Positions 2,071 to 47,600 of a stretch of 64,000 nucleotides of DNA are shown here, piece after piece; position 1 is the stretch's first letter; every line of letters begins with the position of its first letter. The translations under genes and the position numbers were made by a program. The stretch covers positions 8,184,001 through 8,248,000 of the forward strand of contig NC_058382.1 of NCBI RefSeq assembly GCF_018350175.1, in the 5' to 3' direction. A model generated the notes under the pieces. The model worked only from the letters and a program-made list of their open reading frames with translations. It was not told the origin of the DNA and did no database searches. The stretch comes from Felis catus. Its lineage: Eukaryota.

Positions 2071-19918
<17,848 letters not shown>

Positions 19919-20760: not shown

Positions 20761-21440
20761 CGACGAGTCCACGACTTGGTCGTCGGGCCTCCGGAGCTCC
20801 TGGCCGCTCCCAGTTATCCAACATCCAGGAACCCCGATTTCTGCCTCGCGTGTGCCTTCGCCGGGTAGGCAAGTCCCTGGTTTTGTCCCCGCCCCCTTCC
20901 AACCCTCTGCGTTCTATCCCCGCCCCCTCGAATCGCAGCGTCCAATCCTCTCCCTCCGTTCGCTCCCCAGCCTTCAGTCTTTTTCTACCCGGCCTGATTT
21001 CTCTACCATTGGCTTCCCGGGTTCTAAGCAGCTCCTCTCCTCTGAACCCCAGGTTCTTGAGCTTCCCACTCCGCTTTGTCTCACTCTCCCTCTTTGAAAA
21101 ACGAGGCTCAGCTTGGTACTCATAGCCCACCTTTGGGTACGTGTAAAGTCACGCGCGTGGGTATCGAGCCGGAGCGAATCAAAGTTCTACCATCCCGAGG
21201 AGGGAGGGCTACTTTGGGGAGTTGGGCCCGCCCACCGAAACCGCCCACGGAAAAAGCAGCTGCGCGGATTGAGTGGTGCGAAAGGGAAGCTACAGCAGAT
21301 TGGATTCAAGTGAGCCAGGCAGAGGGACTTCCGTGTGGGAAAAGGTGCACGGATAAAGGGGGAGAATATGTCACAGGCTGAGCTCAGACTGGGAGGCCGG
21401 AATGGGCACAGACAAGCAGAGGCTGAAACGTGAAACTCGT

Positions 21441-21446
21441 TTTATT
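21441..21446 (-). terminator. ADM5 polyadenylation signal AATAAA
   Basis: tttatt about 190 nt after the ADM5 stop codon. Confidence 0.7.
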
Positions 21447-21635
21447 AGGCTCTGGACGATAGTATTCTTTGTACATGCTAGGTCCGGTGTGCACCGAGTC
21501 CAGCCCAGTCACAGCCGGGGGGAGACAGTTTCTGAGTGAGCCCAGGAGATGGAGGGCAAAAGAAACTTGGGATCGTGGCCCCAATACACAGGTAGGTAAG
21601 CTGAGGCCAGAGGAGGAACAGGGACGTGCCCGACG

Positions 21636-22168
21636 TCACCCAGCCAGCCGGGCACTGCGCTGGCCTCTTTTCTTCGGGCCAGGGTCATAGAGACGCAGCA
21701 GGACTCTGGCGTCGCGTTTACGGCGGCGCCCGTAGCTGTGGGGGTCCTGGGGCTCGCGGCCGGCCTTCCCTGAGAGCTCTTTGGTGGAGGCAGAGCTGAG
21801 CCAGTATATAATCTCTGGCAGGCGGTGCGTCTGGCATGTGCCCAGGGAACAGAGGCGCCTGCGGTTCTGGGCGACCTGATGCAGGGGCCGTCTGGGGAAG
21901 GAGCATGGGAGAAGACCGGGTTCAAACAGAATCCTCTCGAGAAAGGGGTCTCGGTGGGGTCGGGGCACCCAGAGCTCCGCCACAGGGCAGGCGCGTGTAC
22001 AGATGACCATTCCACCGACGCGGAAAACCGTGGCCTGAAGAGGGCGCACGCTCCTCGCGGTCTCCTTCCCGCCCGGTCCCCGCCGCCACCCGCTTCTCAC
22101 CTGCCCGCAGAGTCCGGGTCCCCCAGGATGGAGGAGGCGAGAAGCAACAGGAGGACGTGGGAAGTCAT
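21636..22168 (-). CDS. ADM5: Adrenomedullin-5 precursor (calcitonin/CGRP family), 2 coding exons, 107 aa
   Basis: Exon 22101-22168 encodes the signal peptide [22 protein letters not shown] (donor CAG|GTGAGA). Exon 21636-21891 (acceptor CCCCAG) continues in frame [60 protein letters not shown]..., giving a 6-residue Cys ring and a Tyr-Gly-multibasic amidation site. Total 324 nt, syntenic between PRMT1 and CPT1C. Confidence 0.95.
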
Positions 22169-22431
22169 CGTGGGGTGGGGCCGGGAGTGGTCCTTGAAAC
22201 CCCTGGGCGAAGCGGCCCGTCTGGAGTGCGGCCCCGCCCCCTCCCGACTCCCGCTTCAGCGCCGGTCCCCTCCCCCGGGGGGGAAAACCGAGGCCGAGTC
22301 CAGGCCACACCACGCCAGAAGGGAAGACAGAACCCGGATCCCCACGTCCTGTCCTTGGCGTCGGAGCCCCACACGGGTGTGCTGGTCGCACAGCGGCGCT
22401 CTGACCCTGGGAGGCCTCTGGAGAGCGACCC

Positions 22432-22460
22432 TTTTAAGGAGGGAAGAGGGGCGGGGCAGC
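22432..22460 (-). promoter_or_regulatory. Candidate ADM5 core promoter (TTAAAA TATA-like box plus GC box)
   Basis: TTAAAA at 22432-22437 with GGGGCGGGGC just upstream, about 265 nt before the ATG. Confidence 0.4.
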
Positions 22461-23670: not shown

Positions 23671-32943
<9,273 letters not shown>

Positions 32944-44621: not shown

Positions 44622-47600
44622 ATGGGTACCCAAAAGCCGCGGATCCTGCCCTGGCTGAAGTTGCAGCTGGACTTGGGGCGGCTGGAGGGGGTGGCCTGGC
44701 TGGACGAGAGTCGCACGCGCTTCCGCATCCCGTGGAAGCACGGCTTGCGCCAGGATGCCCAGCAGGAGGACTTCGGCATCTTCCAGGTGAGTGAGCTTCC
44801 CGGACGCCCGAAACCCTGAGCTGCCAGCCAGGCGGGATGGACTCCCAGGGGGTGGAGCCGGGAAAGCGGGGTTAGCACGCCTGTGATCGGCCCGAGCTGA
44901 CGCTGGCAGTTGGAGGTGGGTGGAGTTAGGACAGGACCCGGCCGGGTTATCGGTGCCGGGGTTATCGCAGGCAATGTTGGAGCGGCCAGTTTCCGGGAAA
45001 AGAACCGGAAAAGCGGGGTAATTTCTCGAAGGAAATGCATCCTGGGGGATTCAGAGCTCGCAGAGGGCGGGGGGCTTGGTCATAGAATTCTGGGGGCGGG
45101 GCTTGGAACCTTAGAGGCGAGACTTGGCCCCCAAGCTGAGGTGATGCCCCACCAAGTTAGAATATACCAGTGGTGCGGTACCCCGGGTTAGAGTGTGAGG
45201 GGGCGGGGTTATTACAGGGTATCCTGGGGCAGGTTGGTGGCAGAGTTAGACACCCAGTAGGACTGGAAGTTTGGCTTAGAAAGCAAAGGTTTTCAAGGCG
45301 CCTGAGTGGCTCAGTGGGTTGAGCATCAGACTTCAGCTCAGGTCATGATCTCGAGGTTGGGGAGTTCGAGCCTCACATTGGGCTTACTGCTGTCAGCACA
45401 CAGCCTGCTCTCCCCTTCCGGGTTTACACTGTCTCTCAAAAAACAAAACAAAAAAGTAAAACATTAAAAATTAAAAAAAAAAAAAAAAAAGAAAGAAAGC
45501 AAAGGTTTTCAAGAAGTGAAGATAGGGGACCTTGGGGTGCAGAGAATCCAAGGGTTTAGGGATGGAACCTTGCCAGGTTAGAACGTGCCAGGTTAGAACG
45601 TTGGGGCAGGGGGTCTTAGTCACCCTCACCATCCTGGTCAACTGGATCCCCAGGCCTGGGCCGAGGCCAGCGGCGCCTACACTCCTGGAAAGGATAAACC
45701 TGATCTGCCCACCTGGAAGAGGAATTTCCGATCGGCCCTGAACCGGAAGGAGGTGTTGCGTTTAGCCGAGGACCGGAGCAAGGACCCCCACGACCCCCAC
45801 AAGGTCTATGAGTTTGTGAACTCAGGTGTGCCAGAAGTGGGGCTTCACGTGGAGGGGTGGGATTTTGAGTGTCCCCGACACCCTTCTCCACTTACCACCT
45901 TCCTTGACAGGAGCTGGGGACTTTCCTGAGTTGGACACCTCTCCAGATGCCAATAGCAGATGCAGTCCCTCTGACACCCAGGTCAGAACGCATCCCGACC
46001 CTCCTGCCCTCCTGGCTCTGGCCCGTCTTTCTCTCTGTCCCCATGGCCTTGTTCAGGCTTCCTTTTCTCCCCCTGGACCTTCGCCTCCGTCTTCCTCCTG
46101 AGCCTCCCTTCTCTCCCCTGCGGTCCAGCCCCAAACTGAGCTAAAGCTGACCCTGTCCCTCCCCTGCTCATAGCCCTGCCATGGTTTCCTGGCATCCTCA
46201 GGAGAAAATCCGTTTTCACCAGGCATTTAAGGCCCTAATATACCTTCCCAGAGTTTCATAGCTTCCCTTGCTATTTAGGGTACCCTCAGCCTCCCGGGAA
46301 CCCAGAACCACCCTCCCCTTGGTCTTGCTGATGTCTGCGTTGGGGCAGGTCCCCCTCTGAAGTCATGTCCAGCCTTCTCTGCCCAGGTCTCGCTGGCACA
46401 GGGCCAGATCCTGGGGCCAGATTTAGCCACTCCCCTTGGGCCGGCAGTAGACCCAGCATATAGCAGAGCATGTATTTTGCCATTCTGTGCCCACGGTGGT
46501 CTCCCACCCCCACCCCCAGCTGGAAGCCCCTTGAGGGCAAAGCTCAGCTGGGACTCCTCTCTGGGTCCCTACACTGCTGGGCACAAAGGCCTGGTCTATA
46601 CGGCGTCTCCAGAAAAGGCTGTGGAAATGCCTGGGTGCTTTTCTTTTTTTCCTTCTCTCCAGGAAGACATACTGGAGGAGTTACTGAGTGACATGGCCTT
46701 GGCCCCATTCCCAGGTGGGGGGCCCTCGAGCCTGCCTGTGGTCCCTGAGGAGACCCCTCCATTCTTGCTGAGCCCCAGCGTAGACATCCCTGCCCCCTGC
46801 CCAAACCTGCAGCCCCCGGAAAATCCACTGAGGCGGCTGTTGGTGCCCGAGGAAGGTGAGCGCCGACTGTAGGGTGGGAGGGGCTGGGGCGATGGACCCC
46901 CTTATGCTCACTCAATCCCCCTCCCCCTTCATGTCGCTGCTGCCGCTGCTCAGAGTGGGAGTTCGAGCTGACTGCCTTCTACCGGGGCCGCCAAGTCTTC
47001 CAGCAGACTGCCCTCTGCCCGGGAGGCCTGCGGCTGGTGGCGTCAGATGCAGACCAGACGCTGCCTGGACAGCCAATAATCCTGCCAGACCCCGGGGTGT
47101 CGCTGACGGACAGGGGCGTGATGGGCTACGTGAGGCGTGTGCTGAGCTGCCTCGGTGGGGGGCTAGCTCTGTGGAGGGCGGGACAGCGGCTCTGCGCCCG
47201 GCGGCTGGGGCACTGTCACACGTACTGGGCCTTGGGCGAGGAGCTCCTCCCTGACAGTGGCCACGGGCCCAGCGGCGAGGTCCCCAAGGATGAGGAAGGA
47301 GACGTGTTCGACCTGAAGCCCTTCGTGGCAGGTGAGTGAGGCAGGGCCTTAGCTCTGCTGTGGAAAGAGCGTACCCCAATGGTTCAGAACTCTGACGTCC
47401 GGAATGGAATTCAGAGGACTGAACTTCGGCCTGGGGCAAAAAGACTGGATTGCTCTGAGTCTGTCGGAGATGGGTCTCCTCTGCCTGGAGCCGGTAGGCG
47501 GCCAGGGGTGCGGTGTGCGGAAGTGCTCAAGGAATTACCTGCCACAGTCATCACGATCACCAGTTATTACCACTTACCAGGATAGGGGGCCAGAGAGATG

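Follow-up and report, generated by a model that had tools for sequence, protein, structure and literature searches.

Synthetic pig adrenomedullin-5 (AM5) is a peptide of about 50 residues. In sheep, pig AM5 (Swiss-Prot A5LHG2; PMC3499383) lowers pressure and resistance and raises cardiac output and natriuresis, the pressure response being transient (PMC3259696). According to PMC3259696, Takei 2008 reported for AM5 a cAMP potency much lower than that of adrenomedullin (AM) at any CLR-RAMP pair. Pufferfish AM5 is recognised by CLR1-RAMP3 (PMC6283891). The latter review describes AM5 as present in Artiodactyla and Carnivora, as absent in rodents, and as carrying in human and chimpanzee a 2-bp deletion that shifts its frame. 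The precursor of the paralogue AM2 (intermedin) is cut two residues before the ring, yielding a 40-mer, and is also reported to be cut at Arg56-Pro57 (PMC10511904). Peptides of the CGRP family place their C-terminus on the receptor ectodomain and their ring and helix in the transmembrane pocket, and the long action of AM2 has been attributed to its Arg23-Arg33 segment (PMC10248883). The window analysed here, a stretch of 64,000 nucleotides of Felis catus DNA, contains the cat-family orthologue of the AM5 gene (ADM5), which is intact, comprises two coding exons and is already annotated.

The ADM5 gene of the cat

The features of the locus are collected in Table 1.

Table 1. Features of the cat ADM5 locus and of its neighbours, in window positions.
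Feature	Position	Strand	Remarks
IRF3 domains	45597-47336		Farther upstream than PRMT1
PRMT1 exons	25144-26224	minus	Upstream neighbour; PDB PRMT1 E 4.9e-20 against PRMT8 3.7e-18; Pfam PRMT_C
Candidate promoter elements	22431-22454	minus	GC box 22454 and TATA-like octamer CTTAAAAG 22438
ADM5 first coding exon	22168-22101	minus	68 nt, starts with ATG; Met1-Gly22 and 2 nt of Arg23
ADM5 intron	22100-21892	minus	209 nt, GT-AG, phase 2
ADM5 second coding exon	21891-21636	minus	256 nt, residues 23-107, ends with TGA
Candidate convertase site Arg33-Arg34-Arg35	21855-21863	minus	One residue ahead of the ring; putative cleavage site
Predicted hormone core Leu36-Tyr76	21732-21854	minus	41 aa; Cys37-Cys42 ring at 21851-21834
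Gly77 amide donor and RRRKR cleavage site	21714-21731	minus	No change at Y76, G77 or the flanking Arg in two alignments
AATAAA poly(A) signal	21441-21446	minus	190 nt past the ADM5 stop
CPT1C first coding exon	19772-19912	minus	Downstream neighbour; 46/47 residues shared with the brain isoform of CPT1 (2M76), E 1.7e-27
Pfam Carn_acyltransf match	13037-13396		Further match supporting CPT1C

An earlier note on this DNA had proposed an AM5 gene hidden between PRMT1 and CPT1C. Its position is borne out by PDB and Pfam matches on both sides, the CPT1C exon scoring far better against the brain isoform than against the liver isoform of CPT1 (E 8.7e-11). PRMT1, ADM5 and CPT1C all lie on the minus strand, and about 1.5 kb separates the ADM5 ATG from the PRMT1 stop codon upstream. 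The gene order agrees with that of the human chromosome 19 block, IRF3-BCL2L12-PRMT1 / CPT1C (PMC5608299), and the human ADM5 locus also adjoins PRMT1, being listed as 'PRMT1;ADM5' (PMC9924914). The gene is hidden only with respect to a track of single-exon open reading frames: it is annotated in cats and in most carnivores. To note, seven runs of N (134-171 nt each, 1,034 bases in total) occur at 30288-55796 and leave ADM5 untouched.

The two exons join in frame into a precursor of 107 residues, as the note had read them, and the product agrees letter for letter (107/107) with the protein that RefSeq gives for felids as 'putative adrenomedullin-5-like protein' (record P0032), with no difference at the protein level. 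This 107-residue record stands in a cluster of 6 under the names Felis catus, Prionailurus viverrinus and 'n=5 Felidae', and its accessions include XP_004001463.2, XP_007099273.2 and XP_014936801.1. A search with exon 2 scored all 29 candidates as homologues; the 23 named ones are all ADM5-like, the best being that of the striped hyena (92%). Disabling mutations in close relatives were looked for in the clouded leopard and Geoffroy's cat records, each of which is one residue off cat ADM5 and carries no disabling change. The assignment to ADM5 follows from the RefSeq identity and the PRMT1/CPT1C synteny, the match to ADM2 reaching only E 0.066. Among 7,990 candidates for longer ADM5 forms (241-2000 aa) there were 2 matches, neither of them a relevant fusion. 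In the literature searched, which covered few subscription journals, the matches listed included no paper on cat ADM5, on rodent retention of the gene or on the carnivore RRR motif described below.

The donor site CAG/GTGAGA matches the consensus at 8 of 9 positions and the acceptor is pyrimidine-rich; without splicing, the frame meets a stop directly after exon 1. A 137-residue ORF starting within the intron (P0001) was rejected as the true product, since a signal peptide is missing from it and its source contig is unnamed. The hyena, mongoose and caniform models begin 12 residues earlier (MGFKD...); the cat is in frame and has the same residues there (22169-22204, minus strand), with AGG at the position of the Met. 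Felids would therefore use the downstream ATG.

The ring C37-S-L-G-T-C42, the Y76-G77-RRRKR amidation and cleavage signal and the AATAAA that the earlier note had listed are all present. Cys37 and Cys42 are the only cysteines of the precursor and are both invariant in the ortholog alignment, the disulfide being predicted from sequence. Frame 0 stays open through YGRRRKR, and a hominoid-type tail corresponds to a different frame of the window. The pattern Cys-x4-Cys, 28-36 residues, Tyr or Phe, Gly and a dibasic site occurs once in the six frames of the whole 64 kb. The exon 2 translation passes the cut-off of Pfam PF00214 (calcitonin/CGRP/IAPP) narrowly, with 22.7 bits against 22.3 (E 1.4e-4), while the 41-residue core by itself matches no Pfam family at E 0.01. 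The single occurrence of the ring-plus-amidation pattern, the Pfam pass and the RefSeq identity together put the observation beyond chance.

The N-terminus is hydrophobic (Kyte-Doolittle 9-mer up to 2.63), with a core at residues 4-15 that is retained in orthologues. A helix is placed at residues 3-12 in an AlphaFold model of low confidence (mean pLDDT 54, pTM 0.19), too poor for a fold search. Cleavage of a putative signal peptide is predicted near Gly16/Asp17. The same model places a helix at residues 47-57, with a hydrophobic moment of up to 0.44, a value computed without a control.

The peptide compared with its relatives

From Cys37 onwards, pig AM5 (P0022, UniRef A0A8D1ZUQ0) is identical to the cat peptide at 37 of 40 positions, the exceptions (cat/pig) being Ser55/Arg, Glu69/Lys and His74/Tyr. 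Both share the ring, the helix region, the distance from the ring to the Tyr and the YG-polybasic signal. Before the ring, in contrast, pig has RLTR-HQ and SGR-L where cat has RRPL-HQ and RRR-L, and these different basic residues suggest that the N-terminal cut may differ. The human protein (NP_001094810.1, P0137, 153 aa) aligns with that of the cat up to IIYW; it is frameshifted after the helix, its amidation signal is absent and its ring reads CYLGVC. AM2/intermedin (6UVA chain P), a paralogue, is the only PDB match (E 0.066; profile search E 0.078). It shares with cat AM5 a six-residue ring with LGTCQ and the terminal sequence PHSY, and some 15 of the 40 residues aligned are identical. Cat AM5 has Pro48 (within the predicted helix), Glu49 and Ile50 facing Ser21, His22 and Arg23 of AM2, and its hinge is two residues longer. 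The proline at the position of residue 48 is found in 26/26 carnivoran records and in 20/21 other records that are neither rodent nor simian.

The mean identity to 27 named non-felid orthologues is 0.92 over the core Leu36-Tyr76 and 0.81 at the cleavage site, and falls to 0.73 in the signal, 0.70 in the N-terminal spacer and 0.55 in the tail. The gap of 0.28 between the core and the rest was reached by none of 100,000 column shuffles, in a test made at the protein level that ignores relatedness, is not a dN/dS analysis and leaves aside models shifting into the human frame. Motifs were counted over named records, after dropping unnamed ORFs (except two simian ones), near-duplicates and non-primate models in the human frame; the latter are those of dingo, grey seal (version.1), two elephant seal species, bison, alpaca, peccary, donkey (UniRef) and sifaka. 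The ring and the YG-dibasic signal are kept in all 26 carnivoran records counted, which agrees with the earlier note's statement that AM5 is intact in carnivores, as well as in 21/21 other non-rodent, non-simian records and in 9/9 rodent records.

The last count runs against the claim, made in the note as in the review, that AM5 is not found in rodents. Intact records, which are public NCBI annotations (P0018, P0019, P0024, P0039-P0042, P0054 and P0056, all non-muroid), come from beaver, three marmot species, two ground squirrels, grey squirrel, gundi, guinea pig and degu. In the last two the peptide has diverged, with the changed helix region THLLPHRLAWVRA in common, a hint of faster change in caviomorphs. 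Mouse, rat and hamster do not occur among the named ADM5 matches, which is weak evidence of absence; nor do rabbit and bat. In the primates, the records of Human, Pan, Gorilla, Pongo and Nomascus are without the amidation signal, in agreement with the frameshift stated in the note for human and chimpanzee and given in the review (PMC6283891). The ring of Pongo, first scored as missing through an artefact of the pattern, is CHLGVC. Both ring cysteines are lost in Sapajus, Cebus and Saimiri (P0055, P0106, P0124), the capuchins keeping YGRR; this loss in capuchins and squirrel monkeys is separate from the hominoid frameshift. Two simian-like records (P0030, P0053) are intact, with the ring changed to CYLGVC.

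Several non-primate models (P0026-P0029, P0057, P0094, P0098 and P0108) move, close to or at WLR, into the alternative frame of the human protein. They likely represent annotation projected from the broken human protein, since they mostly break where the human protein breaks and enter the same alternative frame, and since grey seal XP_035924139.1 is frameshifted whereas its version.2 is intact. The southern elephant seal has models of both kinds. True frameshifts in seals, considered as a refutation of an intact carnivore ADM5, were rejected on these annotation versions. Among the records examined, Mirounga angustirostris, bison, alpaca, Chacoan peccary and Coquerel's sifaka are represented by frameshifted models only, and the gene may really be lost in these species. 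A cluster of 15 members (P0059) contains a decayed AM5-like stretch with neither the six-residue ring nor the dibasic amidation signal, and looks like a pseudogene remnant.

Transcripts of ADM5 and alternative readings

Transcript evidence was drawn from four of 24 candidate sequencing runs, over the part of the window up to 22800: contigs of X9 and X12, both taken as RNA by guess, the single-cell run X21, and X24. In contigs of two of the four runs (X9 and X12) the two exons are joined at 21891/22101, across a gap of 209 nt bounded by GT and AG. Each of these contigs covers only 27 letters on the shorter side of the joint, fewer than the 31 asked of a bridging record. From run X21 there are 22 reads, most of them at 21416-21793 and none across the junction; their orientation is that expected of the 3' end of a minus-strand gene, assuming that the second mate reads sense. 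No ADM5 read came from X24, of which about 2 in 100 of the run was read. In contig depth the intron-retaining form exceeds the spliced one (5.8 against 2; 8.6 against 5.56), and the 'functional' signalling system of the earlier note is overstated in this respect: such a system is one that we infer.

The contigs end at 21430 (X9) and 21457 (X12), and depth is zero in the four bins covering 21200-21415. A 3' end at the AATAAA is supported in three of the four runs, and the AATAAA at 21446 is likely the poly(A) signal in use. The exon joint of the contigs may stem from a processed DNA copy; the absence of X9 and X12 depth at 21200-21415, together with ends at the poly(A) signal, argues for RNA instead. 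An X9 contig carries a T>C variant at 21717, which is synonymous (Lys81, AAA to AAG). Upstream of the ATG, X9 contigs also differ at 22269, 22374 and 22390, by one 2-nt insertion and two substitutions.

The TATA-like box that the note had put forward turns out to be weak. The octamer is the sole TATA candidate in the 632 nt upstream, it stands two mismatches away from TATAWAWR and is missing from a one-mismatch list, and the contigs continue upstream past it. The coverage of X9 and X12 upstream of the ATG is in fact unbroken and level to 22800 (at least 630 nt), and includes the spliced X12 contig of 952 nt; a long 5' UTR, a further promoter or read-through from PRMT1 are each a possible explanation. 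Under the last of these, ADM5 would be intact, but much of the RNA seen would be PRMT1 read-through or unprocessed RNA using the ADM5 intron and poly(A) site. Little precursor would then be made in most tissues, true expression being limited to a few cell types. The proximity of PRMT1 on the shared strand, the unbroken contigs, the excess of the retained intron over the spliced form, the weak TATA match and the four ATGs within 22800-22437 are consistent with this idea, which is nonetheless rather unlikely as a whole. Contigs merge overlapping RNAs and cannot reveal starts, X12 is deeper over exon 2 (13.7) than upstream (5.56), and the conserved peptide argues for production somewhere. Furthermore, PMC13063865 describes human ADM5 as specific to the endothelium of tumour venules, and in dolphins ADM5 goes up 5.4-fold during cold seasons (PMC11143283). 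Both observations fit a separate regulation of ADM5 better than passive read-through from a gene with broad expression. Read-through can, moreover, hold for these particular runs without overturning the main reading of the gene.

Another view is that cat ADM5 is decaying or dispensable and owes its intact frame to chance, apes and New World monkeys having lost the gene. The broken ape and New World monkey records, the lack of mouse, rat, hamster, rabbit and bat records among the named matches and the five species with only frameshifted models are on its side. This is very improbable in view of the contrast in identity between core and tail, of the 26 intact carnivoran records and of the sole coding variant in the contigs being synonymous; as to the non-primate frameshifts, their break at the human site points to annotation error. 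The preferred reading is that of an intact felid ADM5 whose 107-residue precursor is likely secreted, cut and amidated to a ring peptide that would lower vascular resistance through a CLR-RAMP-type receptor. It has a high probability, given the gene structure, RefSeq identity, synteny, the splice joint of the contigs, the 3' end and the conservation centred on the peptide.

Proposed processing and receptor, and significance

By analogy with the family, the precursor would enter the secretory path and be cut by signal peptidase near Gly16. A disulfide between Cys37 and Cys42 would close the six-residue ring. A convertase would cut within RRRKR, a carboxypeptidase would trim the product to Gly77, and PAM would leave a Tyr76-amide. 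The N-terminal cut would most likely fall after Arg35, giving 41 residues, or after Arg24, giving 52.

RRR one residue before the ring is present in 26/26 carnivoran records, 0/21 other and 0/9 rodent records; of 12 simian records it was scored in none of 8 and is not visible in the other 4. The carnivoran RRR is one inherited change, not 26 events. In caniforms, the upstream RR is lost, with GRQP in 21/21 records, and 7 pinniped records have five spacer residues deleted. Sloth AM5 has RR directly before the ring. The RRR of carnivores and the cut that yields the AM2 40-mer make a 41-residue carnivore AM5 plausible. Against it, cats retain RR at 23-24, and other mammals carry RGR at the RRR position and are maybe cut there too. 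The notion that Arg-Pro is uncuttable, as a firm case against the 52-mer, was rejected on the Arg56-Pro57 cut of the AM2 precursor (PMC10511904). It is with considerable doubt that a displacement of the N-terminal cut in carnivores is put forward, through gain of RRR followed by loss of RR in caniforms and deletion of the spacer in pinnipeds, with a 41-residue form in circulation.

On its receptor, the C-terminal DPHSY-amide would dock on the ectodomain, while the ring and helix would enter the transmembrane pocket. The best guess is CLR paired with RAMP3, the potency being low and the duration short, considering the use of CLR1-RAMP3 by pufferfish AM5 and the lack in AM5 of the Arg23 anchor of AM2. 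With Ile50 at this position, a weaker and shorter signal than that of AM2 can reasonably be expected, which fits the transient pressure response of sheep. Between a CLR-RAMP receptor and another, unidentified one, the chances for cat AM5 appear evenly balanced. That the peptide is made but signals mainly via a receptor outside the pairs of CLR or CTR with a RAMP is a substantial, if lesser, possibility. Takei et al. proposed unidentified receptors because the cardiovascular effects were comparable to those of AM despite a much lower cAMP potency at CLR-RAMP pairs (PMC3259696). The departures of AM5 from AM2, where Ser21, the conserved His22 and Arg23 are replaced by Pro48, Glu49 and Ile50 and the hinge is longer, point the same way. 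Conversely, a high dose of AM5 raised plasma and urine cAMP in sheep, and the same receptors are considered possible by the authors (PMC3259696). In addition, CLR1-RAMP3 responds to pufferfish AM5 (PMC6283891) and the last four residues of AM5, PHSY, are those of AM2. As to the activity of synthetic pig AM5 in rats, a lineage for which no AM5 record was found, a receptor kept for other ligands would suffice to explain it.

Human ADM5 has been proposed as an autocrine CALCRL-RAMP2/3 ligand in tumour venules, and the passages available of that paper do not mention the frameshift that removes the human amidation signal (PMC13063865). Because of this frameshift, human ADM5 cannot yield an amidated peptide, which calls for caution in regarding it as a ligand of tumour endothelium. 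Guinea pig, ground squirrels and woodchuck, which carry an intact ADM5, are usable for knock-out or receptor work. Cat ADM5 is a known gene, and the small new point is the basic motif common to carnivores before the ring, which bears on the length of AM5 to synthesise for these animals, 41 or 52 residues. If the shift of the N-terminal cut were true, the natural mammalian AM5 ligand may be a short form, not the longer synthetic pig peptide, and this short form could explain why no receptor has been matched to AM5.
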